Part shown: piece by piece, positions 3,024 through 29,914 of the stretch
Numbering within the stretch: position 1 is the stretch's first letter
Layout: each line of letters starts with the position of its first letter
DNA from: a virus
Direction: 5' to 3' (one strand)
Length of the DNA: 29,914 bases
IMG/VR virus record: IMGVR_UViG_3300045988_063342
Span: 1-29,914 of that record
Notes under the pieces: model-generated
What the model was told of the DNA's origin: nothing
What the model saw: only the letters and a program-made list of their open reading frames with translations
Databases searched by the model: none
Made by a program: the position numbers and the translations under genes

Positions 3024-3076
3024 TGTTACCGTCTTTCAATAGGCTTATTGATAACGGTTCCCATTATACTAGGAAA

Positions 3077-3157: not shown

Positions 3158-4435
3158 CTATAATACCTCAACATCCCAACTAGTCAACTTAACCGGCGTG
3201 TACACACTCAACAGTGTAGCGTCCGCAAGGTCAGGCGAACCCATATTATTAGCCGCCTTGTAATCCGCTTTCGCTTGCACCTGACGTTGGTTCTTCGTGG
3301 TGAGTTTCCACTCGCGCGTGCTCAATTCCTCGAACAAAGCGTTTTTCTCTGGGAGTGTTTGTAGGAAATGAAGCTCACCGGAAACGATTCTCTCCGCGAA
3401 AGTAAACCACATCTCACTATTAACGTTGGGATATTTCGCATTGTCTTTGGCACGTGACGCGGAATTAATCGGCTGGACGGGCAACCCATCCGCAATAAGC
3501 ATGTCGGTCAGGCCACCGCCAACACCGCAATCATCAATATTAATGGCGACTGGATTGTATCGGTCTGCCAGTTGTCTAATGGTCTGCGCCGAGTCAGTTA
3601 GTCGCGTGTGGTTCCAGCTAATTAAATCTATGATGGTGCCGCCCTTGTTGACTGCTACTGCTGTCCGGTCTGCTCCCAGTCGTGCGACGTCAACGCCGAA
3701 GGTTATGCCACCGTCAGGCATGATGGTGGTTTCAGCCGACTGCAATTGTTGCCACGACATAATGCGATTAAGCACGTTATCGGTCGGTTTGCCCTCCCAG
3801 ATGTGCGCGAAGTCGGGAGACCCTTTAGCCTCTTGGACTTGTTGCAATACTTCCCGCGGTAGTAGTCCGGCCTTGAGCGCTGTACGGTAGGTGACGTGCT
3901 TATGGATGGTTCGCGCCTTGACTTGTTCGTTCGCATTCCACACGAAGCGTTGCATGACCTCGTCTTTAGGGGTCAGCGGGTTCATGGCGAAAATAATCGT
4001 ACTGTTTTCCTTGCGGATAGTCGGCAGAAGAATGTCCAGCGAGTGCTTCGAGATGAATTGCGCTTCATCGATGAAACACACGTCAATACCTTCCAAACCT
4101 TTAACGGTGGTTTCGGGGTCATTATGCAAGCCCTTGAACACGAAACTGGTGCCATTTTCATGCTCTATGGAGTCTTTTGTAATACTGTATCCGCCAAGGT
4201 TAAGCAGTTGTATCGAGTCCTCTAGACTCTTCTTCACTGATTCATTAATCGAGTTTTGAAACTCACGCGCACATAGAACACGGATAGGCTTGACTGCGCC
4301 ACGCAATACTAACGACTGGCATATGGTAGTGGTTTTGCCTGAACTACGGCCACCCTCGAACACGTAATAGCGTGCTGGCGGGGCGGGCGAGTGAGTCCAC
4401 CAGAAAAGGCTAGCGTAAGCGTCTGGAATCTTCAT
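3158..4435 (-). CDS. terL: Terminase large subunit
   Basis: Walker A (FEGGRSSGKTT), Walker B-like (VCFIDEAQ) and a C-terminal nuclease-like region (GVDVARLGADRTA ... NIDDCGVGGG). It lies upstream of the portal gene. Confidence 0.9.
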   Translation of the reverse strand: MKIPDAYASLFWWTHSPAPPARYYVFEGGRSSGKTTTICQSLVLRGAVKPIRVLCAREFQNSINESVKKSLEDSIQLLNLGGYSITKDSIEHENGTSFVFKGLHNDPETTVKGLEGIDVCFIDEAQFISKHSLDILLPTIRKENSTIIFAMNPLTPKDEVMQRFVWNANEQVKARTIHKHVTYRTALKAGLLPREVLQQVQEAKGSPDFAHIWEGKPTDNVLNRIMSWQQLQSAETTIMPDGGITFGVDVARLGADRTAVAVNKGGTIIDLISWNHTRLTDSAQTIRQLADRYNPVAINIDDCGVGGGLTDMLIADGLPVQPINSASRAKDNAKYPNVNSEMWFTFAERIVSGELHFLQTLPEKNALFEELSTREWKLTTKNQRQVQAKADYKAANNMGSPDLADATLLSVYTPVKLTSWDVEVL

Positions 4436-4629: not shown

Positions 4630-4702
4630 GGGGGCTGACGGGATTCGAACCCGCGACATACGCTAACCGAAGCTAGCCGTTCTACCACTGAACTACAGCC
4701 CT
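4630..4702 (-). tRNA. tRNA with a non-canonical anticodon arm, tentatively Arg(UCG); possibly a pseudo-tRNA or specialised tRNA
   Basis: Hand-folded cloverleaf: acceptor AGGGCUG/CAGCCCC (A1.C72 mismatch), D arm GUUC-AGUGGUA-GAAC, T arm GCGGG-UUCGAAU-CCCGU. The anticodon arm GCUA-GCUUCGGU-UAGC gives a 4-bp stem with an 8-nt loop, or 5 bp with a 6-nt loop. The CU-UCG-G core suggests anticodon UCG. Confidence 0.6.
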
Positions 4703-4756
4703 ACCACCTGCTAGGCAGATGGAACGCGGCAGACACCTGACCTCTACCGCGTCTCG

Positions 4757-4828
4757 CTTCCCCGTCTGGACTCGAACCAAAACAGGCAGTTCCAAAGACT
4801 GCCGTGCTACCCATTACACCACGGGAAA
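4757..4828 (-). tRNA. tRNA-Gln (anticodon UUG)
   Basis: Hand fold: acceptor UUUCCCG/CGGGGAA, D arm GUGU-AAUGGGUA-GCAC, anticodon arm GCAGU-CUUUGGA-ACUGC, T arm UUUGG-UUCGAGU-CCAGA. No CCA is encoded. Confidence 0.8.
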
Positions 4829-4888
4829 ATTGGTTGGCTTGGATATTAGCGCGTTACCGCCGCATCCTATCGACCGCCAACCGTTGAG

Positions 4889-4973
4889 CGGAACGTGAGG
4901 GATTCGAACCCCCGAACCGTTGCCAGTTAGCACCTTAGCAGGGTGCCCGCTTAAACCACTCGCGCAACGTTCC
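4889..4973 (-). tRNA. tRNA-Ser (anticodon GCU), type II with a long variable arm
   Basis: Hand fold: acceptor GGAACGU/ACGUUCC, anticodon arm GCACC-CUGCUAA-GGUGC, long variable arm, T arm GGGGG-UUCGAAU-CCCUC. Confidence 0.8.
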
Positions 4974-6861: not shown

Positions 6862-7181
6862 TTGTTTTGCTCCAATCTTTTCGAACGCTTATATTCGCGT
6901 ATCTGCGCTAAGCGTTCCTCGTATTTCCTGGGATATTCTTTTTTGATTCGCGCGTATTGTTCGCGTTCATGCAGTAACCGTTCCTCGCGGTGGGCTTGAT
7001 AGTAGCGGCGTTTACGTGCACGTTCAAGCTCTCGCTGGTGGGCGGTTAGTGGACGTTTGCGTTTAGGTTTCCGGAATGCCTCTATCTGCTCTTGCAGTGG
7101 GGTAAGGTCGTAGTCCTGCATCTGGGTGATGTGCGCTTTCAACGCGCATTCAATTTCCCCTTCAGCGGTTAACCTACTCAC
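6858..7181 (-). CDS. Hypothetical, highly basic Arg/Lys/Glu-rich protein
   Basis: 107-aa ORF, start/stop-coupled on both sides. Confidence 0.55.
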   Translation of the reverse strand: MSRLTAEGEIECALKAHITQMQDYDLTPLQEQIEAFRKPKRKRPLTAHQRELERARKRRYYQAHREERLLHEREQYARIKKEYPRKYEERLAQIREYKRSKRLEQNK

Positions 7182-7355
7182 TTACTCCGCCTTAAATACA
7201 GCTCGGTCTTTAGCCTCTATGGCTTCGACCGGGATACGGTAGTCCCTTTTAACCTTGATTGCGGGAATTTCACCGTCTTTGATAAGGCTGCGGACGGTTT
7301 GCGCTGTTACTGCGTAATGTTCGGCGACTTGTCGCACTGTGTAATATTTCGTCAT
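7182..7355 (-). CDS. Excisionase/MerR-family HTH DNA-binding protein (57 aa)
   Basis: MTKYYTVRQVAEHYAVTAQTVRSLIKDGEIPAIKVKRDYRIP is the typical excisionase-family HTH. I preferred the internal ATG at 7355 because the 94-aa version reads through the repeat array and promoter. Confidence 0.65.
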   Translation of the reverse strand: MTKYYTVRQVAEHYAVTAQTVRSLIKDGEIPAIKVKRDYRIPVEAIEAKDRAVFKAE

Positions 7356-7362
7356 ATCCCAT

Positions 7363-7391
7363 AGCATACACGGCATTTCGACAAATTGCAA
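7363..7391 (-). promoter_or_regulatory. Leftward promoter, probably giving a leaderless mRNA
   Basis: The minus strand reads TTGCAA (7391..7386), a 17-nt spacer, then TATGCT (7368..7363). The ATG at 7355 starts 8 nt after the -10. Confidence 0.45.
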
Positions 7392-7428
7392 CCATATCGC
7401 AAAAGTATGGGAAATATCGCTCATATGT

Positions 7429-7494
7429 CTACCCTGCACCACATGCAGTACTACCCTGCACCACATGCAGTACTACCCTGCACCACATGCAGGG
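7429..7494. repeat. Three tandem 22-bp repeats, each with an internal palindrome CTGCA-N5-TGCAG
   Basis: ctaccctgcaccacatgcagta occurs at 7429..7450 and 7451..7472. The copy at 7473..7494 ends in gg. Confidence 0.95.
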
Positions 7495-7496
7495 AT

Positions 7497-7543
7497 AAGT
7501 ATAACCATAGTAAAAATAACCAATGGAAGTATAACCATAGTAA
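7497..7543. repeat. Two direct 17-mers, aagtataaccatagtaa, spaced 30 bp start to start, followed by an A-rich tract
   Basis: Identical copies at 7497..7513 and 7527..7543. The tract 7544..7572 is A/T-rich. Confidence 0.9.
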
Positions 7544-7572
7544 GAAAAAGAAAATACTAAAAGAAAAAAATT

Positions 7573-7601
7573 TTGCAACGTCGTCAATCTTGTGTTATAG
7601 T
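7573..7601 (+). promoter_or_regulatory. Rightward early promoter
   Basis: TTGCAA (7573..7578), a 17-nt spacer, then TATAGT (7596..7601). The ATG at 7609 lies 7 nt downstream, so the mRNA is possibly leaderless. Confidence 0.5.
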
Positions 7602-7608
7602 GTTATCT

Positions 7609-8373
7609 ATGCAAGATATTCAAGGTTTTTGTGCTATGCGCCACTGGGTCATCAGAGGAAAGCACTTTGACAACACTTTGGAAAAACTCGTCTACATCGT
7701 TCTTGTAGACCACACTGACGATAACGGGCAGTGCTTCCCGTCAGTGGGCACGATAGCCGCAGAAGCAATGTGCGGAGAACGTAGCGTCTATACCGCGCTG
7801 AAATCGCTAGAGGCCAAAGGGCTTATTACTCGTGAGCCAAGATATGCGGCAAATGGCGTGCGTAAATCAACCGTCTACCATGTGACCGCCGAAGAACGCA
7901 ATGTCCAGCCTGATTCCTATAAGCCTGATACGCTTGATAAAACGCTTTGCCAAGCTCCAGAATCGACTACCACAGTAGAACCCGAACGCGAACCCGCACC
8001 GACGGAACCCGCGCCACATAAGCGCGAGGAATACCCGACAGCGTTCGAGCAACTGTGGACAATCTACCCGAAGCATGTAGCCAAGATGGCCGCTTACAAG
8101 GCGTGGCGTAAAGCAAAAGTAGGCATGAACAGCGCCTTCCTCCTGGCCAAGGTGCAGTCATTCGCCGCCCAGTGCGCCAACACGGAAACCCGATTCATCC
8201 CGAATTTCGCCACATGGCTCAACGGGGAAAGATGGAACGATGAATACCGTCCAGACCCGCCGCAAGCCCGTAAGCCCGCCACGAACGCGGAACGGAATAT
8301 GCGGAATCTCGCTCAGGCGATGCAGTCGCAAACTGACCTCTTCGGCTTCCAGATTGAGTCCGGTGTGTCGTAA
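7609..8373 (+). CDS. HTH-domain replication initiation/organiser protein (start 7609, or 7636)
   Basis: A winged-helix segment (CFPSVGTIAAEAMCGERSVYTALKSLEAKGLITRE) is typical of phage replication initiators, as is the C-terminal FEQLWTIYPKHVAKMAAYKAWRKA motif. It lies next to the repeat array. Confidence 0.55.
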   Translation: MQDIQGFCAMRHWVIRGKHFDNTLEKLVYIVLVDHTDDNGQCFPSVGTIAAEAMCGERSVYTALKSLEAKGLITREPRYAANGVRKSTVYHVTAEERNVQPDSYKPDTLDKTLCQAPESTTTVEPEREPAPTEPAPHKREEYPTAFEQLWTIYPKHVAKMAAYKAWRKAKVGMNSAFLLAKVQSFAAQCANTETRFIPNFATWLNGERWNDEYRPDPPQARKPATNAERNMRNLAQAMQSQTDLFGFQIESGVS

Positions 8374-8422
8374 GCAAAACTGTTGTATTATGTAATTACC
8401 GACCAATGAAAGGACAAAGAAA
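8360..8422 (+). promoter_or_regulatory. Repeated early element A, copy 1 (promoter-like plus leader/RBS)
   Basis: ccggtgtgtcg-N10-tgttgtattatgtaattaccgac..gaaaggacaaagaaa then ATG. GTGTCG is followed by 15 nt and then TATTAT. Confidence 0.55.
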
Positions 8423-8752
8423 ATGACCACCGCAACCTATAACCAAATCGCAGAAGCCATTGGCAGGCGCAAAACCTACTCCATTAACGACAATCTCAAC
8501 GTGTACACCACGCGCGGAGAAAAACGGGGAAAAGTCTTCCGCGTCCAGTGGGAAACGCTCAACTATCCGACACCGCAAGAATATTCTAAAGCGCGTCACG
8601 AAGCCCGGCGTGAAGGGCGTAATGTTTGGATAACATCCTTTCATTCGGTGGACTTCGAGTTCACCGAAGCCGGATACGAGGAAGCCTTAAAATACGTCGA
8701 GACGGTAAAGCACCATAACGACGAAATATCCAATTTCCGCCAAGCAATCTGA
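8423..8752 (+). CDS. Hypothetical protein, paralog family 1 (109 aa)
   Basis: It follows element A1. It shares NDNLNVYTTRG..FRVQWE and FTEAGYEEALKYVE with the ORF ending at 11343. Confidence 0.7.
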   Translation: MTTATYNQIAEAIGRRKTYSINDNLNVYTTRGEKRGKVFRVQWETLNYPTPQEYSKARHEARREGRNVWITSFHSVDFEFTEAGYEEALKYVETVKHHNDEISNFRQAI

Positions 8753-8759
8753 CGTTATC

Positions 8760-8781
8760 GCCCCGCCTCCAAGGGCGGGGC
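8760..8781 (+). promoter_or_regulatory. Element B, copy 1: GC hairpin without a U-tract, followed by a conserved RBS
   Basis: gccccgcc-tccaag-ggcggggc, then cacccaacgaaaggaaaataaaATG. Confidence 0.6.
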
Positions 8782-8802
8782 ACCCAACGAAAGGAAAATA
8801 AA

Positions 8803-9228
8803 ATGCTGACACTATTCAACGACATTCCCCCGTACGACATGCATTCCGTCGTGGAATGCGACAAGACAAAAGACACGGCAATATTCGAAACCGCACTAAC
8901 CATACAAGACAACCATAAAATAGCCCGCTACCGAGTATGGCTATCAGCCTGGAAAGGCTTAGAAAACCGGCAGAGAAGCGGAGCCAAATCTAAAAGTTAC
9001 ATGATGGACGTCGTAGCCCCATCAGACTGGACGATTGATAAAGTCCACAACGCTATACTCTCGTACCTAGCTGGCATCAAGTGGGTGAAAATGTCGAGTG
9101 GCATACAATGGTGGAGTGGCATACAATGGTGCCACGCTGACTACCAGCCACAAGCCCACGACTCCCTCCAAGAAGACTACATCCTTTACCTTGACGACTT
9201 TCTGGACTCAATCACACCAAACTTCTGA
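8803..9228 (+). CDS. Hypothetical protein (141 aa) with an internal perfect 18-bp tandem duplication
   Basis: RBS GAAAGGAA. The duplication gagtggcatacaatggtg lies at 9096..9113 and 9114..9131. Confidence 0.65.
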   Translation: MLTLFNDIPPYDMHSVVECDKTKDTAIFETALTIQDNHKIARYRVWLSAWKGLENRQRSGAKSKSYMMDVVAPSDWTIDKVHNAILSYLAGIKWVKMSSGIQWWSGIQWCHADYQPQAHDSLQEDYILYLDDFLDSITPNF

Positions 9229-9236
9229 GAGGGAAT

Positions 9237-10157
9237 ATGAAATACATAAGCCTTTTTAGCGGTATCGAAGCCGCGAGCGTCGCGTGGAAGCCATTAGGCT
9301 GGGAGCCTATAGCATTCTGCGAATTTGATAAAACACCCTCAAAAGTCCTAGCAAAAAACTTTCCGAACGTTCCCAATCTGGGAGACGTCACCAAAGTAGA
9401 TTGGAATAGATACCATGGAACAGCTGACATTGTGGTCGGAGGAAGCCCATGCCAAGCATTTTCAGTCGCAGGCGCACGAAAAGGGCTTAATGATTCGCGC
9501 GGCCAGCTCATGCTCGAATATCTCCGAGCTTGCGCAGAAATTGACCCGGAGTGGATTATCTGGGAGAACGTTCCAGGTGTATTCTCTTCCAATGGTGGCA
9601 GAGACTTTGCAACATTGCTTAATTCCGTTTCAAAACTCTGGGGTGCTCGCGGGGGAGGGGGGGCATGGCGAGTGCTTGACGCTCAATACTTCGGAGTACC
9701 CCAACGACGTAAAAGAATCTACCTTGTCATCAATACTCACGACTGGAGACGTGCCGTCAACGTGCTTCATGACAGTGCAAGCTTGCAGGGGGATACTTGC
9801 AAGGCTGGACAAAAAGCCGAAGCTCTCAGAGCCAGCAGGCTTGAGAGACGCTTGTCAGGAAGTAATAAAGTCCAATGTCGCATAGACACACAGTCTTCTG
9901 CGCCAACAATGAGCGACGCTTGCCCGACATTGCTTCGCCATAATCGCAATGACCCGCCCTACATTTGGGGGGTGAACGGGTATCCTTTCAGGCGGCTTAC
10001 TGCTGAAGAGTGCGAAGCGCTCCAGGGTTTCCCGCCTGGATGGACTGACTGTCTGAGGTACCGTGAGCGAATCGGCGTGTTAGGTAATTCCATGGCCGTG
10101 CCGGTTATGCGTTGGCTCGGTAGGAGAATTGACACCATATCAAAGGGAGCAAAATGA
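9237..10157 (+). CDS. DNA (cytosine-5)-methyltransferase
   Basis: Motif I (LFSGIEAAS), motif IV (GGSPCQAFSVAG), motif VI (ENVPG), motif VIII (QRRKRIYLV) and motif X (GNSMAVPV). Confidence 0.9.
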   Translation: MKYISLFSGIEAASVAWKPLGWEPIAFCEFDKTPSKVLAKNFPNVPNLGDVTKVDWNRYHGTADIVVGGSPCQAFSVAGARKGLNDSRGQLMLEYLRACAEIDPEWIIWENVPGVFSSNGGRDFATLLNSVSKLWGARGGGGAWRVLDAQYFGVPQRRKRIYLVINTHDWRRAVNVLHDSASLQGDTCKAGQKAEALRASRLERRLSGSNKVQCRIDTQSSAPTMSDACPTLLRHNRNDPPYIWGVNGYPFRRLTAEECEALQGFPPGWTDCLRYRERIGVLGNSMAVPVMRWLGRRIDTISKGAK

Positions 10158-10570
10158 ACACTATCAATCATCCAGAACACTACACCGACAGCACGAAGCC
10201 TTGCGAATGCATCGAAGTCGCGCAATATCACAGCTTTTGCGTAGGCAACGCGATAAAATACGTGTGGCGGCACCGACTCAAGGGGCGCCCCCTCGAAGAC
10301 TTGCAGAAAGCGGAATGGTATCTACAGAGGGCTATCGACAATGGCGAGAAATGCCGTCTGCAAATCGATGGCGACCCATTGGACGCGCACAATCCCATGC
10401 AAGTGGGGAAGTGCTGTCTCTATATGGACACCCTGTTTGATATTGCTAGGCGCGCTGCGACCTACCGTGAAGGCTTTTTCTGGATGTACCTGCGTAAAGG
10501 TGATTTGCAAAACATGTTGCGAATCGTGAAAATGATGCAAGCGGAATATAAGGGGCACGAGGATGAATAA
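10154..10570 (+). CDS. DUF3310-family phage protein
   Basis: HPEHYT...CIEV...GNAIKYVWRHRLKGRPLEDLQKAEWYL is the characteristic DUF3310 pattern. It has an ATGA overlap with the upstream gene. Confidence 0.6.
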   Translation: MNTINHPEHYTDSTKPCECIEVAQYHSFCVGNAIKYVWRHRLKGRPLEDLQKAEWYLQRAIDNGEKCRLQIDGDPLDAHNPMQVGKCCLYMDTLFDIARRAATYREGFFWMYLRKGDLQNMLRIVKMMQAEYKGHEDE

Positions 10571-11003
10571 ACTGCAAGTTCAAGCGCTCCTAACCTATGC
10601 CAGCGCCTTTGATAACCGTCTTGTAACCGATATCCAGGTGGCCGCATGGACGGAAGCGTTAGCCGCGGACATGCGATTAGACGTGGCGAAGGAAGCGATA
10701 CGCCAATTTTTCGCAAGCCCGGAATATGTGAAGAAGCGTCCGTATCTCATGCCCGCCGACCTGAACGCGTTTTGGCGCAGATGGAAGCGAGACCATAATC
10801 CATCCGAAGGCGACATTATGCATGAGATGCGTGCGTTAGGCCTCGAAGGTGATGCAAGTTGGGAGTACCGGCGCAACCGGCTGAGCGGGCGGACGATTGA
10901 AGAGTCCGCGCAGGCCGCTAAGAGGTTCAGGGGTATCGACAATGCGCGTGGGTTGAGTCGTTTGGGTGAGATTCTGCCACGTCCGGCGTGTCGCCACGAA
11001 TAA
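10563..11003 (+). CDS. Hypothetical protein (146 aa)
   Basis: ORF in operon context. Its 3' end contains the GGCGTGTCG box of element A2. Confidence 0.6.
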   Translation: MNKLQVQALLTYASAFDNRLVTDIQVAAWTEALAADMRLDVAKEAIRQFFASPEYVKKRPYLMPADLNAFWRRWKRDHNPSEGDIMHEMRALGLEGDASWEYRRNRLSGRTIEESAQAAKRFRGIDNARGLSRLGEILPRPACRHE

Positions 11004-11044
11004 TGTTGTATTATGTAATTACCAACAAACGAAAGGACAACAAA
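10983..11044 (+). promoter_or_regulatory. Repeated early element A, copy 2
   Basis: ccggcgtgtcg-N11-gttgtattatgtaattaccaac..gaaaggacaacaaa then ATG at 11045. It has the same 15-nt GTGTCG-to-TATTAT spacing. Confidence 0.55.
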
Positions 11045-11091
11045 ATGCCACCGCAAACCTCCGATTCAACCTCTTCGAAATCTTCGATAAC

Positions 11092-11343
11092 ATGATGGGC
11101 GACAAGAAGAAGCTCCGCATCACAAACAACCTCGACGTGTACACTACCCGCACGGGAGACATTCACAGAGTAATCCGCGTCCACTGGGAAATCAAGAAGA
11201 CCGACGAAGAACTCCGCAATGACTACCGCAAGCGCGGCAACCACTATCCGCATCACTGCTATGAGAAGCTTTTCCCCTACACCACTGAGGGACTGTATGC
11301 GGCAATTGACTACCTCGAAAAGCTCCCCGAAAACGCAATCTGA
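11092..11343 (+). CDS. Hypothetical protein, paralog family 1, second copy. The N-terminus is displaced by a 1-nt frame difference.
   Basis: ITNNLDVYTTRTGDIHRVIRVHWE and YTTEGLYAAIDYLE align with the 8423 ORF. The element-A ATG (11045) is out of frame and opens a 16-codon uORF whose TGA overlaps the in-frame ATG at 11092. Confidence 0.55.
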   Translation: MMGDKKKLRITNNLDVYTTRTGDIHRVIRVHWEIKKTDEELRNDYRKRGNHYPHHCYEKLFPYTTEGLYAAIDYLEKLPENAI

Positions 11344-11350
11344 CCCCCAC

Positions 11351-11370
11351 CCCCGCCCACGCGGGCGTGG
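11351..11370 (+). promoter_or_regulatory. Element B, copy 2 (GC hairpin)
   Basis: ccccgccc-acgc-gggcgtgg with one mismatch, then aaccattaatgaaaggaacaacaATG. Confidence 0.5.
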
Positions 11371-11393
11371 AACCATTAATGAAAGGAACAACA

Positions 11394-11987
11394 ATGAAAC
11401 TCGAAGAAAAATATATGGCAGTCCTCAACGAAGTACCGAACTTCGTCACCGACCTCACCGCCAACGCCGGACAACGCACCTACAAGTACCTCAACCTATC
11501 CACCATCCTCAAGACCATCAAGCCTATTTTCGCCAAGTATGATTTAGCCTTCCGGCAGGTGGTGCGCATGGGCGCGGTAGGCGACAAAGTGAGCTACGGC
11601 ACTGTAGAAACAATCATTTTCGACGCTGAAAAAACCCTGCACGTGGGCGACTATCCATTCATTGTGGTACCCGACCCTCAGGCAATCGGCTCCGCAGTAA
11701 CCTACGCGCGACGCTACTCCCTCTACGCCGCCCTTGGCATCTTCCCCGACAAGGACGATGACGGAGCCGCCATGCGCGACTATTCCACCCCAAAACAGCC
11801 ACGCAAGGCCACAGCACAGGAAGTCAACGACCTTAACGACATGGCCCAGGCCGCTGGAACAAATCTGGGGTTCTACGTCAACGCTTTGGCATCGCAGTTC
11901 GGCCATGAGGTGCGTAGACCGCAGGACTTGACCGAACATGACGTCATGCTTCTGCGCCAGGCCATCAGCAAGGGCGGTAACAAGTGA
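11394..11987 (+). CDS. erf: ERF-family single-strand annealing protein
   Basis: YKYLNLSTILKTIKPIFAKYDL...QAIGSAVTYARRYSLYAALGIFPDKDDDG is the ERF signature. I chose the ATG at 11394 by analogy with the conserved RBS spacing. Confidence 0.8.
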   Translation: MKLEEKYMAVLNEVPNFVTDLTANAGQRTYKYLNLSTILKTIKPIFAKYDLAFRQVVRMGAVGDKVSYGTVETIIFDAEKTLHVGDYPFIVVPDPQAIGSAVTYARRYSLYAALGIFPDKDDDGAAMRDYSTPKQPRKATAQEVNDLNDMAQAAGTNLGFYVNALASQFGHEVRRPQDLTEHDVMLLRQAISKGGNK

Positions 11988-12151
11988 AAAAGGTTGCTAT
12001 ATTCTGCGGTTTCTTGGCGCTTACGATTGTGTCCGCTGTCGTTTTGGGAGTGGCATTTCAATGCGATGATAGGCCCATGATTCTTCTCGCATTGGTTACC
12101 ATCCTTATTGGGTTGGCGGGCATGGGTTTCGTTGTCATGGATTATCTCTAG
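11984..12151 (+). CDS. Small two-TM membrane protein (55 aa, GTG start)
   Basis: Found by hand: VKKVAIFCGFLALTIVSAVVLGVAFQCDDRPMILLALVTILIGLAGMGFVVMDYL. The GTG overlaps the erf stop (GTGA). Confidence 0.45.
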   Translation: MKKVAIFCGFLALTIVSAVVLGVAFQCDDRPMILLALVTILIGLAGMGFVVMDYL

Positions 12152-12152
12152 T

Positions 12153-12215
12153 CCGGTGTGTCGTAACCGAAACTGTTGTATTATGTAATTACCGACCAAG
12201 GAAAGGACAAAGAAA
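12153..12215 (+). promoter_or_regulatory. Repeated early element A, copy 3
   Basis: ccggtgtgtcgtaaccgaaactgttgtattatgtaattaccgaccaaggaaaggacaaagaaa then ATG. It is nearly identical to copy 1. Confidence 0.55.
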
Positions 12216-12410
12216 ATGAACATCAACCTCAGCACAGCAGAAGGCTACATCATCGACTATCTTGAGAACAGCGGACAGGATGACGGCCAATGGGACACCT
12301 ACGGAGCCGCGAAAGACCTCCGCTTCATCTGCGACATGAACGGGTACACCGATTATGAACAGGTGGACCCCGACGAGTTCACCGAACTGCTCAAGGAACA
12401 CGCACTCTAA
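12216..12410 (+). CDS. Small, strongly acidic protein (64 aa)
   Basis: 15 Asp/Glu against 3 Lys/Arg. It is the first gene after element A3. Confidence 0.65.
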   Translation: MNINLSTAEGYIIDYLENSGQDDGQWDTYGAAKDLRFICDMNGYTDYEQVDPDEFTELLKEHAL

Positions 12411-12420
12411 ACCACCCACC

Positions 12421-12442
12421 GCCCCGCCCGCAAGGGCGGGGC
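12421..12442 (+). promoter_or_regulatory. Element B, copy 3 (9-bp GC stem, GCAA loop)
   Basis: gccccgccc-gcaa-gggcggggc, then accactaatgaaaggaatgacaATG. Confidence 0.6.
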
Positions 12443-12464
12443 ACCACTAATGAAAGGAATGACA

Positions 12465-12743
12465 ATGAAAGAAACAATAACAATTGACCAATACGTCAGA
12501 TTCCTCAAGGAAACACTAACCCAGCTTGAAAAAGTAGCCAAAGAAGCACCAAATCTTGAATTGAAAGACTACACGCCGCAAATCGCAATCTACCCCAATT
12601 CCAGAGAGAACGCACTTGACTTGCTCTACCTGGCTGGAATCGAACCGACGATCTACAAAAATATCGTGCGAGGACGATTCAACACCGTCAACGGAATCGC
12701 CTACGTCCACTATGAAGAAGAGATTGCGGGAGAGGATAAATGA
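12465..12743 (+). CDS. Hypothetical protein (92 aa)
   Basis: The ATG at 12465 has the conserved GAAAGGAA spacing. Confidence 0.6.
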   Translation: MKETITIDQYVRFLKETLTQLEKVAKEAPNLELKDYTPQIAIYPNSRENALDLLYLAGIEPTIYKNIVRGRFNTVNGIAYVHYEEEIAGEDK

Positions 12744-13150
12744 GAATCACACTATGGCCGGGAGCCATGCCCATCACGTTCAAAACCGTCGCTGGAGACC
12801 GGGAATACAGAATCATGAAAGGCGTTTACGGACACCTCATTCAATCCAAGAACGGCAACCTGTTCACCTTGGACAATGGAAACAACTTGCGCGTAGTTGA
12901 TACTTGCAACGTCCAATATTTGCAATCATTGACAGACGGGGAACGTCTAAAATTCCTCCGCAACACGTTCGGCATCAGCCAACGAGAACTAGCCAGAATG
13001 TACGGCGTCCGGCAAGCAATGGTAGCGCACTGGGAAGCAGACTACAGGCATATCGCCCCGAAACGCTTCGAACAAATCGAAGCCACACTATTCAACGCTT
13101 ACATTCGCACAGCATCTAGAGCCGGGCTTCCGGTAGGAAAGGAAAACTAG
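12740..13150 (+). CDS. Protein with a C-terminal XRE/Cro-type HTH domain
   Basis: LRNTFGISQRELARMYGVRQAMVAHWE. It has an ATGA overlap with the upstream gene. Confidence 0.6.
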   Translation: MRITLWPGAMPITFKTVAGDREYRIMKGVYGHLIQSKNGNLFTLDNGNNLRVVDTCNVQYLQSLTDGERLKFLRNTFGISQRELARMYGVRQAMVAHWEADYRHIAPKRFEQIEATLFNAYIRTASRAGLPVGKEN

Positions 13151-13151
13151 A

Positions 13152-14039
13152 ATGAGGATTCTGAACGTTTCGCAAACGCAGGACACGCAAGCATGGTTAG
13201 ACGCCAGGATTGGCAAAATCACTGGTACCAAAGCCGGAACACTCGCGCTCGAACATTACGCCCAAAAGGACGTAGCCAAGCTCGAAGCCATGGCAGACAA
13301 GGCAAAGACCGAGGAAAAGGCCGAAGAGTATCGGGAGAAAGCACGTCAGGCCAAGCGAGATAACGCACGGTTGAAAGTCAACCTCGACTTTTGGCAGTTC
13401 CTCGCTGACATGATCGCGGAACAGCCGGACGGGGAACCGCCAATGGAACGCGGCCACCGTTTGGAAAACACTAACATCATGATGGCGTGCGAGAAACTCG
13501 ACATTTCGCCAGACGTCGTGGAATTCGACACTGGCATGTGGGTAAGTGACGTGGATGACCGTATTGCGGTCAGTCCTGACGCTCACGCCAAGCCGCAAAT
13601 CGATATTAACGGGCTGGAATATAATCCCACGTTCGCGTTCGAAGCGAAAAGCCTGGGCACGAAATACCATTTGCAGACGGTTGTTCCGTTCCGAGTATTC
13701 CAGATGCTCTACGATTCGGAGACCCCGAATAGTCAACGTGATGAATTGCGGTCGTTGGCGCTCAAACTCTTCCCGGAGATTTTGGAATCGCGTCGAGAGT
13801 TCGACTTCATCCCCGAACAGTATCAGGCTCAAGTGCTCCAGTATTTTGTCGTCAACCCTGACTTGCAGACAGTGTATTTCACCATGTACGACGACAGGGT
13901 GTATAGTAGTCTGCGACATGAGGTGTTCGAAGTTGACCGGCGGAGTGTCGCAAGTGAAATCGAAGCACAGGAGACAAAGGAATTACAGACATTGACACTT
14001 ATTGACGAACTGCAAAAACTGGGAGGTGTGGACTGGTGA
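13152..14039 (+). CDS. YqaJ/lambda-Exo-like recombination exonuclease (PD-(D/E)XK)
   Basis: N-terminal WLDARIGKITGTKAG, AVSPDAH and FEAKSL (D...ExK). It sits in the same block as the ERF gene. Confidence 0.7.
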   Translation: MRILNVSQTQDTQAWLDARIGKITGTKAGTLALEHYAQKDVAKLEAMADKAKTEEKAEEYREKARQAKRDNARLKVNLDFWQFLADMIAEQPDGEPPMERGHRLENTNIMMACEKLDISPDVVEFDTGMWVSDVDDRIAVSPDAHAKPQIDINGLEYNPTFAFEAKSLGTKYHLQTVVPFRVFQMLYDSETPNSQRDELRSLALKLFPEILESRREFDFIPEQYQAQVLQYFVVNPDLQTVYFTMYDDRVYSSLRHEVFEVDRRSVASEIEAQETKELQTLTLIDELQKLGGVDW

Positions 14040-14314
14040 GCATTTCACGACGTGTCATTTACGCGGTGTTCGACGATTGCGCGGGATGCAAACACCGTGA
14101 ATTGATTGACGAACTCCGAAAAATGGTGTTGCGCATCAAGAAGAAAACCGGCGTCATGATTGCGCTCATGGTCGTCCAGCCGGGCAATAGCCGTTACTGG
14201 ACACTGCGCAAGTCTCACAAGTATTCTAATGCGCCTTTTTTCGTGTTCGACGGCGTGTGTTATCGCCATGTGGATGCGCTTGAGGTGCAGTGCTTGGCGT
14301 ATTGCTCTCGCTGA
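14036..14314 (+). CDS. Hypothetical protein, possibly a thioredoxin-fold protein (CxxC)
   Basis: VIYAVFDDCAGCKH ... PFFVFDG resembles the glutaredoxin/NrdH layout. GTG start. Confidence 0.4.
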   Translation: MSISRRVIYAVFDDCAGCKHRELIDELRKMVLRIKKKTGVMIALMVVQPGNSRYWTLRKSHKYSNAPFFVFDGVCYRHVDALEVQCLAYCSR

Positions 14315-14319
14315 TAAAA

Positions 14320-14360
14320 GGGGAATCTACGAATGAATTTCGTTGGTTCCCTTTTTTTAT
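14320..14360 (+). terminator. Intrinsic terminator
   Basis: Hairpin GGGGAATCTACGAA-tgaat-TTCGTTGGTTCCC followed by T7 (14352..14358). Confidence 0.6.
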
Positions 14361-14362
14361 TT

Positions 14363-14425
14363 TCGGCGTGTCGTGTCCGCAAGCAGTGTATTATGTAATT
14401 ATCAACCAAGAAAGGGCAAATTAAA
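14363..14425 (+). promoter_or_regulatory. Repeated early element A, copy 4
   Basis: tcggcgtgtcg-N11-agtgtattatgtaattatcaaccaagaaagggcaaattaaa then ATG. Confidence 0.55.
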
Positions 14426-14659
14426 ATGAAATACCAAGCGACAATAGAACTCAACAATCCGGACAAAACCATCAAAATAACCCTCGAAGACGAAAAAGAA
14501 CCATACACATTCAGCTTCGGACACGCATACACCCTCAAAGGATTGCTAAAGCGCGGCACAGCGCAACTCAAAAAGGAAACGGGAATCAATCTCGAATGTC
14601 CAGTCTTCGCACATCGCAACAACACGACCGACTTCTACACAGTCCTATACACTCACTGA
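14426..14659 (+). CDS. Hypothetical protein (77 aa)
   Basis: First ORF after element A4. Confidence 0.6.
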   Translation: MKYQATIELNNPDKTIKITLEDEKEPYTFSFGHAYTLKGLLKRGTAQLKKETGINLECPVFAHRNNTTDFYTVLYTH

Positions 14660-14670
14660 AAGGCCAAGCA

Positions 14671-14817
14671 ATGAAGAAAACAGACGGATTCGTGACAATA
14701 CTCTTTATTTTCGGATTCGTATTATCCGCAAATGAAGAAATAAACTTCATCAATATTATCGGTGTCGCGTGCGTGTTTTCGGCACTCTACATCTACCGCA
14801 AAGGAGCGAAGAAATGA
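14671..14817 (+). CDS. Small membrane protein (48 aa)
   Basis: MKKTDGFVTILFIFGFVLSANEEINFINIIGVACVFSALYIYRKGAKK. RBS GAAAGG. Confidence 0.5.
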   Translation: MKKTDGFVTILFIFGFVLSANEEINFINIIGVACVFSALYIYRKGAKK

Positions 14818-15176
14818 ACAAAGCAGTCCAGGCCGGACTAGTCGCCGGATACCTCAACACTTGCGTCCAGCTCACGGACGGGTACGGACTGAAATTAAGA
14901 ATCATGCGTGAAAGCTGGAAAATGGCGTGCGACAAAGTAGCCGACCATTACGAAAAATTCGCGCAATCCACGGACGATAACCGCAACCACTGTGTGGCGG
15001 TAGGGAAAAAGGCACAGGCGGAAAGCTTGAAGAATCTTGCCGTGTGCGGTTGGTGTCTCGCACCCTTCATCACTTTCCCAGTGTGGGTTCTCATGGCGAG
15101 GAAGACGGGTTTACGTGGCTATCTGACGGCCGTCAGCGTATGCGCGTTCACCAGGCATATCGCGGAAATGTATTAG
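14814..15176 (+). CDS. Hypothetical protein with a C-terminal hydrophobic segment (120 aa)
   Basis: AAGGAG lies 7 nt upstream of the ATG at 14814. It has an ATGA overlap. Confidence 0.55.
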   Translation: MNKAVQAGLVAGYLNTCVQLTDGYGLKLRIMRESWKMACDKVADHYEKFAQSTDDNRNHCVAVGKKAQAESLKNLAVCGWCLAPFITFPVWVLMARKTGLRGYLTAVSVCAFTRHIAEMY

Positions 15177-15185
15177 GGGGATACG

Positions 15186-15464
15186 GTGAAATATAGGAAC
15201 GTTGATGCTTACGACTATCGCGTGCAGTCTCATTATTCGGAAAACGGTGTCGTATGGGAGGTGTATGAGAGGACTAGCGACGGTTGGGAGAAACGTAAAC
15301 GCGGTTACGACAAGCGGGTTGCCGAAGCAAGGGAGAGAGCGCACGCGGTTATCGTTCGGCTTGCTGAAGTGCGTTATGGCGCTGATTATCGCGTGTCCAG
15401 GTTGGTGCCATTGAAGTATCCGATGTGTTGGGGTGTGTTTGTCGAACGTCGGCGTGTCGCATAA
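15186..15464 (+). CDS. Hypothetical protein (92 aa, GTG start)
   Basis: GGGGGA RBS. Its 3' end contains the GGCGTGTCG box. Confidence 0.5.
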   Translation: MKYRNVDAYDYRVQSHYSENGVVWEVYERTSDGWEKRKRGYDKRVAEARERAHAVIVRLAEVRYGADYRVSRLVPLKYPMCWGVFVERRRVA

Positions 15465-15480
15465 CCAAGTATTGCATGAA
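15449..15480 (+). promoter_or_regulatory. Degenerate element A, copy 5, fused directly to element B copy 4
   Basis: tcggcgtgtcgcataaccaagtattgcatgaa. The GTGTCG box is intact and the AT-rich core is diverged and shortened. Confidence 0.35.
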
Positions 15481-15496
15481 GAACTCTGCGATAACC

Positions 15497-15518
15497 GCCC
15501 CGCCCGCAATGGCTGGGC
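15497..15518 (+). promoter_or_regulatory. Element B, copy 4 (GC hairpin, one mismatch)
   Basis: gccccgccc-gcaat-ggctgggc, then acacttaacggaaggaataaaacATG. Confidence 0.5.
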
Positions 15519-15541
15519 ACACTTAACGGAAGGAATAAAAC

Positions 15542-15697
15542 ATGTATACGGTTCGTTTTAACGGCATCGAATATGTATGTGACACATTCAGACAAGCCGT
15601 AGCCATGGCAAGAATAGCAGTGACGCACGGAGACGTCGCGACCATTCTTGATGATGAAGGCGAAGAAGTCGCATCATTTCACCCAATGGAGGAATAA
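15542..15697 (+). CDS. Hypothetical small protein (51 aa)
   Basis: Found by hand: MYTVRFNGIEYVCDTFRQAVAMARIAVTHGDVATILDDEGEEVASFHPMEE. The TAATG overlaps the HNH gene start. Confidence 0.5.
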   Translation: MYTVRFNGIEYVCDTFRQAVAMARIAVTHGDVATILDDEGEEVASFHPMEE

Positions 15698-16038
15698 TGC
15701 TAGCGAAAGAAGGCAAACCAAAAGAGAAGAACCCGACCGAAGGAACCCGCCAACTCGTGTTGGAACGTGACCACTACCGTTGCGTGAGGTGCGGACGGGA
15801 CATAAGATACACGCCATTCGGCTACTCCATCCACCACCGTAGGCTACGCTCGCACCCCTACGCTGAAATGCATTCCAGTCCAAACCTCATAACCCTCTGC
15901 GGGTCAGGCACCACAGGTTGCCACGGTTGGGTGCATGAGAACGTGAAGGAAGCCGAACGACTGGGATTAATCGTTTCAGGCTTCGCACGACCCGAAAGCA
16001 TTCCAGTGCAAACGTGGAACGGTTTGAAAGACATTTAA
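15697..16038 (+). CDS. HNH endonuclease
   Basis: RDHYRCVRCG...SIHHRRLRS...NLITLCGSGTTGCHGWVHEN (Cys pairs plus the H-N-H core). Confidence 0.85.
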   Translation: MLAKEGKPKEKNPTEGTRQLVLERDHYRCVRCGRDIRYTPFGYSIHHRRLRSHPYAEMHSSPNLITLCGSGTTGCHGWVHENVKEAERLGLIVSGFARPESIPVQTWNGLKDI

Positions 16039-16047
16039 AAAAAGGAG

Positions 16048-16079
16048 AAGCCGCACGGTTTTCTTTCACCGTGCGGCTT
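16048..16079. terminator. Convergent terminator between the two transcription blocks
   Basis: 11-bp stem aagccgcacgg/ccgtgcggctt. An A-run at 16036..16044 gives a U-tract for minus-strand transcripts. The plus-side tail is weak. Confidence 0.65.
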
Positions 16080-16133
16080 ATCAATGACAGCACTAAAAGT
16101 CAATCGCCAAAACTTTCAGCACTCCACATTATA

Positions 16134-16433
16134 CTAGGCCAACGTATTTTCGTCAACAAACGTTTTGCCAAGCTTGCCGCCCATCACTTGATTAACAGCA
16201 GTATAAACCGTCTGCGACACACCAATCACAGCAACAAGCAGTACACCCCACGTATAACCGTGGTTGAAACCGCCCACAGCCGCGATAGCCAACATGCCCA
16301 GCACGACACTGACCGCGAGACTAAACAAGGCGGTCATGTTATCCGGCAGAATAGGCTTGACCACCTGCACGAACACGGGAGCAACCAAACCGACAATAGC
16401 AACCGCGATAGTCTCAGCCTGAGTAATATCCAT
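16134..16433 (-). CDS. Holin candidate (99 aa, about 3 TM segments)
   Basis: Three hydrophobic stretches. It lies immediately downstream of the endolysin. GGAG RBS. Confidence 0.6.
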   Translation of the reverse strand: MDITQAETIAVAIVGLVAPVFVQVVKPILPDNMTALFSLAVSVVLGMLAIAAVGGFNHGYTWGVLLVAVIGVSQTVYTAVNQVMGGKLGKTFVDENTLA

Positions 16434-16445
16434 AATTTACTCCAA

Positions 16446-17684
16446 TCACCAATACAAGATTTCGCCCGGATAAATCACGTTAGGATTGCCCGAACGATAA
16501 CCCTTAATCTGACTTGCATTAATCTTATATCGCGCCGCGATACCGCTCAAAGTGTCACCAGACTGGACGGTATAACGACGTGCTCCCCCCGTGGAAACGC
16601 TAGACCCGCGACGGCAAACACGCTCACCAGCATAAATGATGTTCGGATTGCCGGAACGGTAGCCAGTCCACTCAGTCCAACTGCAACCATAACGGGAGGC
16701 AATCGAACTCAACGTGTCACCAGCCTGGACGTAAACACATTGCGCAGAGGATTGAGCCGTACCACATCCAAGACGATTATTAACAATCCGCATGACCGAA
16801 TCATAATACCCGCCCAGCAAAGCCTTGCGTGTCGCGCCATTACCGTATCTGCCCGCGATAACGTCGTTCGCCATCTGATTAACGTCACCGTTAGGGGTGG
16901 TGTTCGGCGTATCATGTTTCACCGTAGTAGTGGTGCCTGTCTGCGCGAACGAATTAGGCACGCACCCACTACGCTCACCACAGGCAATACGCCCCCACGC
17001 GGTCTTATCCCCGAAGAACAAGTCAAGGTCAAGGAACCCACCATACCCATTCAACACACCGTGAGATGTGTATTGCAACATGCCCTCGCCGGCACTGCCA
17101 GCATTCCAAGGCTGAGACTGATAGCCAGTCGGCGCATTACTCGCATACTGCGCTTTCCACAACATGCAATGTTGGCGCACGTCCTGCGGAATCTGCCACA
17201 CGGCGGACGCTTGCACGTAAACCACCGGCCAGACACCAGTACGCTCATGCACTCGATTGACCCAATCGCGCACCCAATTCCCGTTACCCCATGACGAGTT
17301 ACGGTAGCTCTCCCAGTCCAACACGAGCATGGAACGGCCAACATACGAGCCGATAGTGTTCACGAAATAGTCGGCTTCCGCAATCGCGTTGCCACCATTC
17401 GCGTAATGGTACAACCCATGAGTCTTTCCGGTTTCGATGGCGCCAGTAATCTGGCTAACCCACGAAGTGTTAGTGAAGTCCACACCCTCGGTTGCCTTGA
17501 CGATAGCGAAATCAGCCGGAATGGTGCGCGTGATGTTCGCGGGTTGCCAACCGCTCACGTCCACTCCATCCATGTTCGCCAACGCGACACCAGGTGACAG
17601 CATGATAGTCGAACTCAACGCCAAACCGGCAACCGGCCTGACCATGCTTCGCTTGATACGCTTATGTTTAGGTGTTCGTTTCAT
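16446..17684 (-). CDS. Endolysin: signal peptide, GH25 muramidase, CW_7 (Cpl-7-like) domain and 2 LysM domains
   Basis: N-terminal MKRTPKHKRIKRSMVRPVAGLALSSTIMLSPGVALA. GH25-like DVSGWQ...ATEG...FTN. The CW_7-like motif is ANDVIAGRYGNGATRKALLG. The two LysM motifs are YVQAGDTLSSIASRYG and YTVQSGDTLSGIAARY. Confidence 0.85.
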   Translation of the reverse strand: MKRTPKHKRIKRSMVRPVAGLALSSTIMLSPGVALANMDGVDVSGWQPANITRTIPADFAIVKATEGVDFTNTSWVSQITGAIETGKTHGLYHYANGGNAIAEADYFVNTIGSYVGRSMLVLDWESYRNSSWGNGNWVRDWVNRVHERTGVWPVVYVQASAVWQIPQDVRQHCMLWKAQYASNAPTGYQSQPWNAGSAGEGMLQYTSHGVLNGYGGFLDLDLFFGDKTAWGRIACGERSGCVPNSFAQTGTTTTVKHDTPNTTPNGDVNQMANDVIAGRYGNGATRKALLGGYYDSVMRIVNNRLGCGTAQSSAQCVYVQAGDTLSSIASRYGCSWTEWTGYRSGNPNIIYAGERVCRRGSSVSTGGARRYTVQSGDTLSGIAARYKINASQIKGYRSGNPNVIYPGEILYW

Positions 17685-29794: not shown

Positions 29795-29914
29795 TTAATG
29801 GGAATCATTCTCATTAAGGTGGCCCAATGAACTGACTATGATTTTTTCCCGGTCGCTGAGCGGCCATATGGTCACGTCCTCTGCGGCCTTCAGTTCCGCG
29901 GCCTTCAGTTCCGC
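29795..29914 (-). CDS. C-terminal end of the junction-spanning N6-adenine methyltransferase (same gene as 1..739)
   Basis: The reading frame continues from base 1 (= 29860) as ...IWPLSDREKIIVSSLGHLNENDSH and ends at TAA (29797..29795). Confidence 0.7.
   Translation of the reverse strand, partial: AELKAAELKAAEDVTIWPLSDREKIIVSSLGHLNENDSH
29860..29914. repeat. 55-bp terminal overlap identical to 1..55 (circular closure)
   Basis: Direct comparison of both ends gives an exact 55/55 match. Confidence 0.95.

Follow-up and report, generated by a model that had tools for sequence, protein, structure and literature searches.

Putative promoter and hairpin repeats flanking apparently exchangeable small genes in the early arm of a human-gut siphovirus

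Described repeat systems and the locus compared

In T4-type myoviruses, the promoter-early stem-loop (PeSL) combines a repeated intergenic early promoter with a G/C-rich stem-loop, a Shine-Dalgarno (SD) sequence and a start codon (Arbiol et al. 2010, PMC2839356; Comeau et al. 2014, PMC4122927). PeSLs adjoin orphan open reading frames (ORFs), or ORFans, and indels or replacements coincide with the motifs, which were proposed to supply homology for recombination (PMC2839356, PMC4122927). We describe here an arrangement comparable to these cassettes in IMG/VR virus record IMGVR_UViG_3300045988_063342, whose positions 1 to 29,914 make up the stretch of DNA that was analysed (29,914 nucleotides, hereafter the window), a siphovirus genome from the human gut. 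In its rightward early arm, a repeated element of ~60 nt with the features of a promoter and leader (element A) precedes a small orphan ORF, and a second element of ~45 nt composed of a hairpin and its leader (element B) separates this ORF from a conserved core gene.

PeSL cassettes are the nearest described system. As with PeSLs, elements A and B lie beside ORFans and are the places where indels and replacements occur, and at two of the five positions (slots 1 and 4) a terminator hairpin abutting element A would form a similar composite of terminator and promoter. The differences are nevertheless several: the phage described here is a small siphovirus whose host is Gram-positive and probably actinobacterial; the PeSL promoter matches the host sigma70 consensus, whereas element A lacks a -35 hexamer and has an invariant box; promoter and hairpin, which form one composite in PeSLs, are here mostly separate, with A on the 5' side and B on the 3' side of the ORFan; the hairpin has no U-tract and keeps a fixed distance from the conserved core gene that follows it; and the cassettes occupy five fixed slots instead of ~50 motifs in hyperplastic regions. 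For PeSLs, promoter and terminator activities and the formation of mini-circles have been shown experimentally.

The morons of lambdoid phages, associated with the names of Juhala and Hendrix (2000), are reportedly accessory ORFs with their own promoter and a downstream stem-loop, lying between genes that are adjacent in relatives. Morons differ individually from one another, carry sigma70 promoters and true terminators, and are often expressed from the prophage. The insertion between adjacent genes is also found here, the slot 1 ORF being absent from one relative and the slot 5 ORF deleted in the window and in two relatives, whereas the flanking pair is one and the same repeated pair, no lysogeny module was found and the hairpin is without a U-tract. 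An earlier reading of this DNA by a model, made without database searches (the sequence-only reading), had recognised no described system in the arrangement, a statement that has to give way, as morons share its layout. It also has to give way to the PeSLs of T4-type phages, which shuffle ORFans (PMC2839356, PMC4122927).

Four further systems were compared with the locus. In Cluster K mycobacteriophages, the sequences termed SAS/ESAS are conserved, contain an SD sequence and precede start codons, often after an inverted repeat with a variable spacer (Pope et al. 2011, PMC3203893). They share with element B and its leader the same layout, a single orientation, the association with different gene families and the occurrence in actinobacteriophages, but their 13-bp consensus is GGGATAGGAGCCC, as against the leader GAAAGGA(C/A)AA... 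here, and they have imperfect 17-bp arms at 11-19 sites throughout the genome, as against the 9-bp repeat GCCCCGCCC of element B. Neither swappable ORFs nor a partner promoter nor a function were reported for them (PMC3203893). The stoperators of Cluster A mycobacteriophages are asymmetric, repressor-bound sites of 13-14 bp that follow the direction of transcription, number at least 20 and lie in both arms, compared with 4-7 copies in one arm here, where no repressor was identified. Middle promoters of phage T4 consist of a MotA box (TGCTT) at -30 and a TAnnnT -10 element, and are used through sigma appropriation by MotA and AsiA. Element A resembles them in its good -10, the missing -35 hexamer, a box of 9-10 bp at fixed spacing, the many copies and its probable belonging to a later class than an early sigma70-type promoter; it differs in that no MotA or AsiA homologue was detected among the scanned proteins of the window and that the box sequence is unrelated. 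Lastly, halovirus HF2 carries intergenic repeats of 58 bp and 29 bp that are conserved in sequence and position within the genus and proven as promoters by reporter assays (Russ et al. 2021, PMC8707807), but virus and promoter type are archaeal and neither a paired hairpin nor cassette exchange was described. Because several defining features of each of these systems are absent here, we do not count the A/B system as a member of any of them.

The two elements and the genes between them

Pattern scans of viral contigs recovered ~30 related human-gut genomes of ~24-31 kb, each with 3-7 copies of element A. Their comparison with the window points to a division of each cassette in which the small ORF appears as the variable, exchangeable part and the gene after element B as the conserved part. 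This finding is new. The sequence-only reading had overlooked both this division between a variable ORF and a conserved payload and the terminator at 14316..14362, which abuts the fourth element A. The units of the window are listed below in their order along the + strand.

8361..8422, + strand: element A1, with box 8361-8370 overlapping the last codons of rep, a 13-nt spacer, core 8384-8398 and TATTAT 8386-8391; predicted transcription start near 8398, SD GAAAGGA 8408-8414
8423..8752, + strand: cassette ORF C1, 109 aa, family 0, an ORFan missing from all IMG/VR relatives of this phage family
8760..8802, + strand: element B1, a 9-bp G+C hairpin (8760-8781) and leader CACCCAACGAAAGGAAAATAAA before ATG 8803 of a conserved 141-aa gene; -23.8 kcal/mol, z = -4.4
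10984..11044, + strand: element A2, box 10984-10993, core 11007-11021
11045..11343, + strand: cassette ORF C2, a family 0 paralogue of C1, homologous frame 11047-11343
11347..11393, + strand: element B2, hairpin 11347-11370 with one mismatch, leader and SD before ERF ATG 11394; -16.5 kcal/mol, z = -2.2
12154..12215, + strand: element A3, box 12154-12163, core 12177-12191
12216..12410, + strand: cassette ORF C3, 64 aa, acidic (pI 4.1), family 1, the sole occupant identical in family across all genomes
12421..12464, + strand: element B3, hairpin 12421-12442 (GCCCCGCCC-GCAA-GGGCGGGGC), leader and SD before ATG 12465; -23.9 kcal/mol, z = -4.4
14316..14362, + strand: canonical intrinsic terminator, an interrupted stem of ~17 pairs with TTTTTTTATTTT, z = -5.65, ending 1 nt before the A4 box
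14364..14425, + strand: element A4, box 14364-14373, core 14387-14401, SD AAAGGG
14426..14659, + strand: cassette ORF C4, 77 aa, family 14, unique to the window among the fetched relatives, with no element B after it
15450..15541, + strand: fifth unit, a deletion remnant with box 15450-15459, most of the spacer and a damaged -10 (TTGCAT)

The genes that follow element B keep one order (3-2-5-4-6) in all genomes, and the core genes in this position encode a 135-141-aa protein, ERF, a ~90-aa protein, a 48-aa membrane protein and a 51-53-aa protein. Between A and B stands a member of one of ~10 unrelated orphan families, and the occupant of a slot varies by genome: family 0 is found in slots 1, 2 and 5, family 11 in slots 2 and 4, family 8 in slots 2 and 5, and only slot 3 always holds family 1. 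Over ~45 loci, the core segments are 80-95% identical, and C1 and C4 are without counterpart in any of them. One relative (contig 048955) has no ORF in slot 1, where a promoter variant stands directly before the core gene, and chimeric junctions were found beside element B. Homologues of C1 occur elsewhere with 83-93% protein identity. Its gene is ~94% DNA-identical to one in an unrelated, phage-like contig, which is at least 137 kb long and codes for topoisomerase IV-like, DnaB-like and ligase proteins; this alignment extends from the A leader (…GGACAAAGAAAATG) to just past the B hairpin (…GGGCGGGGCACCCAA), and the two DNAs are unrelated outside these limits. Taken together, these alignments show small ORFs that have evidently been exchanged, deleted or transferred from phage to phage, the breaks falling in the A leader and directly past element B.

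The units of the window bear traces of this turnover themselves. The sequence-only reading had placed a short ORF at once after each element A, which is correct as to the presence of the cassette ORFs but fails for A2, whose ATG is out of frame and opens only 16 codons. Compared with all homologues, C2 has a 1-nt deletion right after ATG 11045 (ATG-CCACCGCAA versus ATGACCACCGCAA); this truncation reflects either true pseudogenisation or an error in assembly, and all relatives carry an intact 99-aa gene. C1 and C2 share 29% identity. The fifth unit, which had been described as looking as if its ORF had been deleted, is indeed the product of a ~255-nt internal deletion: a family 8 cassette is intact at this place in two relatives, and a third relative has the same deletion as the window. 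Beyond the damaged -10, this unit holds the last ~17 nt of the family 8 ORF, the B5 hairpin (15497-15518) and the leader before ATG 15542. None of the cassette ORFs has a Pfam or PHROG match. An AlphaFold model of the family 0 protein (8423-8752; pLDDT 89, pTM 0.75) has a mixed alpha/beta fold with a long terminal helix, for which Foldseek searches of PDB and BFVD gave no significant match (best E = 0.17 and 0.2, TM below 0.4).

Two other backbones were seen to carry related genes. The large unrelated phage-like contig (ENA contigs L209, L210 and L212, up to 137 kb) has at ~9000-10400 a C1-type family 0 gene, whose frame is unbroken in L212 but shifted at an A-run in L209 and L210; it is adjoined by a family 11 homologue and a pentapeptide-repeat ORF, and G/C-rich hairpins of the contig's own, with similar leaders, lie between genes. 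Such hairpin-plus-leader junctions are not general in the large phage-like contig and are confined to its cassette cluster. A 22-kb contig with a different backbone (L206, Ga0326512_10001043) carries on its reverse strand, at ~3250-4200, an exact element A and a family 1 ORF, then an 18-bp hairpin unlike B and a family 11 ORF.

Element A has the layout CGGYGTGTCG-N13-TGTATTATGTAATTA, followed by a leader, an SD sequence and ATG. The 15-mer TGTATTATGTAATTA occurs exactly four times in the window, always on the + strand (8384, 11007, 12177 and 14387), as against a chance expectation of 0.41 matches even when three mismatches are permitted, so that the repeats noticed in the sequence-only reading are real. 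Exact box sites begin at 8361, 10984, 12154, 14364 and 15450. From the end of the box to TGTATTAT the distance is 13 nt in every copy, which equals the 15 nt to TATTAT that had been claimed. As for the supposedly invariant core with its palindrome, the core is exact in all four copies, whereas the palindrome GTAATTAC is intact in three and replaced by GTAATTAT in A4.

From the relatives, 105 distinct copies of element A were obtained, with the box CGGCGTGTCG in 101 and the core TGTATTATGTAATTA in 97, the other 8 having the core TGTATTATAAAACTA. The 13-nt spacer exists in 42 sequence variants of constant length. A third variant, CGGCGTGTCG-N12-TGTATAATCGATAAT, stands after rep in relatives, and both variant cores (TGTATTATAAAACTA and TGTATAATCGATAAT) retain the box plus TGTATWAT. 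Because box, spacing and TGTATWAT stay constant while the spacer varies, we regard this as a two-block promoter signature and not as homogenisation by gene conversion. When metagenomes were scanned for the motif, all 39 loci were ~30-kb human-gut contigs or fragments of such, and none lay inside a large bacterial contig.

Some A-like sequences were met outside this pattern. One contig (L016, IMGVR 3300045988_089037, positions 177-250) has a single A-like element, GGGCGTGTCG-N14-TGTATTATGTAATTA, following a T-rich tract; as this phage fragment shares just a lysin-like gene with the window, the A motif is present beyond the core family. In relatives (e.g. L001 at 10097, L028 reverse at 3027, L085 at 8927), a coreless box CGGCGTGTCG lies within a conserved …CGGCGTGTCGCCCCATTGCCATATTTCCCGGC… sequence, probably inside a gene, and at the site of the conserved CGGCGTGTCGCCCCATTGCCATATTTCCCGGC sequence the window has no exact copy of the coreless box. 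Bifidobacterium phage BlindBasel1, a distant cultured relative, is without such a repeat family. Its early arm has TTGACA-17-TATACT promoters and U-less hairpins right before GAAAGGAA ribosome-binding sites, so that the layout is shared but the sequence is not; an early intergenic region of this phage (L120, 2227-2260) begins with GCGTGTCG, which agrees with the box at 8 of 10 bases and lies 17 nt ahead of a TTGACA -35, possibly by chance.

We interpret element A as a promoter specific to this phage family and joined to a leader, in which a non-σ70 box would replace the -35 hexamer. With TATTAT at -12..-7, the box falls at -37..-28 and the predicted start on the final A of the core, after which comes a C/A-rich leader of 25 nt that contains GAAAGGA. 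TATTAT is a good -10; at the -35 position stands GCGTGT or GTGTCG, which match in at most 3 of 6 positions at a non-standard spacing, the TG within A is out of the extended -10 register, and a promoter scan called none of the A elements. The earlier remark that the -35 position is not sigma70-like is thereby confirmed, an invariant 10-nt box at -37..-28 being found instead. In every genome, slot 4 has a stem of 10-14 pairs with a T-tract that ends 0-2 nt before the A box, and slot 1 is arranged likewise in many relatives; the terminator stems abutting A differ among genomes by compensatory changes. The genes beyond these abutting terminators lack any other signal upstream, which requires transcription to begin anew at A. 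The genes of the + arm overlap or lie at most 11 nt apart except at A, B and the terminator, the larger gaps measuring 49, 43 and 64 nt at A, 111 nt at the terminator with A4, 50, 50 and 54 nt at B and 77 nt at the fifth remnant. The possibility that A is a structured RNA was considered and rejected (z = -0.85). Since a canonical promoter stands before rep in the same genome, two promoter classes are plausible; the box is most likely the site of a factor, e.g. a DNA-binding protein made early by the phage, and A would then be a second, later promoter class.

The B family lies at 8757, 11347, 12418 and 15494. The hairpin has no U-tract and its loop is mostly GCAA or ACGC; the upstream stop codon lies mostly 6-11 nt before the stem and the next ATG 20-24 nt past it. 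In an alignment of 40 distinct copies, the nine pairs of the stem are paired in 95.6% of cells, compared with 35-54% when the partner is slid, and double changes were observed in three pairs (G-C to A-U, C-G to A-U and C-G to U-A), a result matched by none of 500 shuffles. The U-less hairpins pointed out in the sequence-only reading do form a structured element with compensatory changes. These data show a hairpin that appears to be under structural selection; the B5 copy has decayed (z = -1.0). Rfam gave no match in 7000..16500 at E <= 1, and for the whole window at the gathering score only the three tRNAs. Because the phage has ordinary U-tract terminators elsewhere, a role as attenuator or stability element fits B better than that of a strong terminator.

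How the elements may work

With moderate confidence, and from comparison of genomes, we favour an explanation that unites three parts: A as a promoter class, B as a barrier or attenuator, and both as homology arms for the exchange of orphan genes. Host RNA polymerase carrying the primary sigma factor would read the TATTAT -10 of A, the invariant box CGGCGTGTCG at -37..-28 standing in for the -35 hexamer, and each A would drive the small orphan gene of its unit. Past the stop codon of this gene, the RNA would fold into the 9 G-C pairs of B. Since B has no U-tract, most polymerases would pass through it into the conserved core gene, whose SD sequence lies at a set distance past the hairpin; B would most likely act as an RNA decay barrier or a partial attenuator and so uncouple expression of the core gene from that of the orphan gene upstream. 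Being near-identical at the five slots and between co-infecting phages, A (~60 nt) and B (~45 nt) could serve as homology arms, and recombination, plausibly by the phage ERF/YqaJ pair, would swap, move or delete orphan genes while leaving the core genes undamaged. That ERF and YqaJ are encoded in the same early arm makes them a plausible recombination machinery.

Several observations weigh against this explanation or some part of it. No gene for a sigma factor, an RNA polymerase, a MotA/AsiA-like protein or another obvious activator was seen among the scanned proteins, and recombination might instead be what preserves the box, or the host polymerase might recognise it without help. The sequences compared for B are closely related, and their covariation comprises 5 cells in 3 pairs; it is equally compatible with a DNA hairpin. 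Unit 4 of the window has A without B, so B is not obligatory. Terminators that lack a U-tract have been proposed in actinobacteria, so that hairpins like B might terminate there.

A possible, though in our view unlikely, alternative is that A is an ordinary strong promoter of host sigmaA which needs no extra factor beyond the TATTAT -10 and its flanking bases, the box and the remainder of the core being conserved only through recombination homology or by hitch-hiking in gene conversion. Its -10 agrees with the consensus at 5 of 6 positions and is properly spaced from the leader, actinobacterial promoters tolerate weak -35 regions, and neither activator nor sigma gene was seen among the scanned proteins. 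Gene conversion would, however, also homogenise the spacer, which has 42 variants next to a box kept in 101 of 105 copies; clear TTGACA or TTGCAA -35 hexamers exist in the same genome and in BlindBasel1, and the TG of A is not in the extended -10 register. One could also take A for an operator of the stoperator type, where a repressor or regulator bound to the box or to the GTAATTAC palindrome blocks or modulates elongation of one long early transcript. The elements are asymmetric, have one orientation relative to transcription and lie in short intergenic regions, and the phage codes for two helix-turn-helix (HTH) proteins, one of XRE type (12740-13150) and one HTH_17 (7182-7466). We nevertheless hold this to be very unlikely: without initiation at A, no transcription would reach the genes beyond the terminators at two slots, a near-consensus -10 stands at fixed distance from box and leader, the sites number just 4-7 per genome in one arm only, and neither an integrase or lysogeny module nor a copy in a large bacterial contig was found. 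The roles of operator and promoter are not exclusive, and the palindrome that overlaps the promoter could be an operator.

For element B, the corresponding alternative is a functional U-less intrinsic terminator of the actinobacterial type, which would turn A, ORF and B into a closed moron-like unit and leave the core genes to be transcribed mainly by read-through from elsewhere. B follows directly after a stop codon and is very stable (~-24 kcal/mol), the order of promoter, ORF and hairpin is that of a moron, and the stem-loops of PeSLs are efficient terminators (PMC2839356). Yet the core genes after B are without a promoter of their own and need transcription through B, canonical U-tract terminators are present in this phage where termination is clearly needed, and the fixed distance from B to the SD sequence and ATG suggests that B belongs to the 5' region of the downstream gene; we consider such a terminator rather improbable. 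As to the repeats themselves, they might be functionless by-products of a recent duplication of neighbouring coding sequence in one genome, the outcome that the sequence-only reading had named as its possible refutation. One duplication did happen, as the C1/C2 paralogues (29% identity) attest, but A and B are conserved in ~30 genomes with core genes 80-95% identical, they flank ~10 unrelated ORF families, and B has compensatory changes. The comparative data refute this reading, to which we assign a negligible probability.

The combination of promoter class, barrier and homology arms can be carried further, to a proposal that we regard as doubtful in its full form. Elements A and B together would be a dedicated exchange system for small early genes, probably of host takeover or counter-defence, serving phages of one gut actinobacterial host; the box would bind an early phage protein that redirects the host polymerase, the unit moving between unrelated phages would be exactly the predicted transcript from the start at A to the 3' end of B, and ERF/YqaJ would use the repeats. 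If this were true, the box class would be sigma-appropriation-like middle promoters, undescribed for actinobacteriophages, and the five slots would be comparable, in a phage, to an integron cassette array. On the more restrained explanation already, five slots in ~30 genomes illustrate how small phages may gain and trade orphan early genes with their essential operons intact, and the exchange points are mapped to a promoter/leader of ~60 nt and a hairpin/leader of ~45 nt. The PeSL idea, so far limited to T4-like phages of Gram-negatives, becomes testable in gut phages of Gram-positives, and the box would define a promoter class new to actinobacteriophages, provided that a phage factor reads it. 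The ~10 orphan families are candidates for anti-defence or host-takeover proteins, and A and B may offer portable expression and insulation parts, as well as safe insertion sites, for the engineering of Bifidobacterium-type phages.

Genome and host setting

The remaining features of the window to which the text refers are the following.

1-55 and 29860-29914: identical 55-nt ends
4630-4973, - strand: three tRNA genes upstream of the terminase gene (Gln-TTG, Ser-GCT and a third with an abnormal anticodon loop, unassignable by ARAGORN)
7182-7466, - strand: HTH_17 ORF, 94 aa as listed, overlapping the tandem repeats; an internal ATG near 7354 would yield a 57-aa excisionase-like protein
7429-7494: three tandem 22-nt repeats CTACCCTGCACCACATGCAGTA between the divergent arms, beside the replication initiator gene
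7497-7513 and 7527-7543: two copies of AAGTATAACCATAGTAA between the divergent arms
7573..7601, + strand: sigma70-type promoter TTGCAA-17-TGtTATAGT with TGn in register, from the promoter scan, conserved in two relatives
12740-13150, early arm: XRE-type HTH protein
16048..16079: 12-bp hairpin at the meeting point of the arms, with a T-tract in the - direction only

Both ends of the window carry the same 55 nt, which indicates a circularly assembled (or terminally redundant) genome of ~29,859 bp. The + arm (7609..16038) codes for an HTH_36/DnaD-like replication initiator, a C5 methyltransferase, a DUF3310 protein, ERF, the XRE-type HTH protein and a YqaJ exonuclease; its last product is a 113-aa protein that is HNH nuclease-like by eye and without Pfam match. 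The - arm opens at ~7466 with the HTH_17 protein, SSB and RusA, followed later by the three tRNAs and the terminase, portal, capsid and tail genes, and ends at 16446 with a GH25-CW_7-LysM lysin. Because its T-tract exists only in the - direction, the hairpin at 16048..16079 terminates the late arm. No integrase or lysogeny module was found among the scanned proteins of the window. The HTH_17 protein, first in the leftward arm, is a candidate early regulator. The repeats between the divergent arms are kept in at least two relatives, and both CTACCCTGCACCACATGCAGTA and AAGTATAACCATAGTAA are probably origin iterons or operators.

According to the promoter scan, the promoter at 7573..7601 before rep is the only canonical sigma70-type promoter of the early arm. 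As the rep ATG (7609) falls 7 nt past its TATAGT -10, the rep transcript is leaderless or nearly so, which fits an actinobacterial host. In Bifidobacterium, promoters mapped by Cappable-seq usually have both a -35 and a TATAAT element, and leaderless transcripts make up ~15% (PMC4782308). The promoter at 7573 agrees with this pattern, against which the missing -35 of element A stands out. DNA searches of cultured phages gave methyltransferase fragments as the sole matches and thus no close cultured relative; in protein searches, the nearest cultured phages are those of Bifidobacterium asteroides (terminase 53% identity, lysin 35%), and the rep protein resembles the reps of Arthrobacter phages. 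Searched against bacterial genomes, the large terminase has distant relatives only, in Methylococcaceae, Methylobacterium and Spirochaetia. The host is probably actinobacterial and Bifidobacterium-like.

The C5 cytosine methyltransferase gene (9237-10157), which has no flanking A or B, is an insertion within the otherwise conserved first core block, and its DNA is matched in 2 of ~45 related loci (94% and 73% identity).

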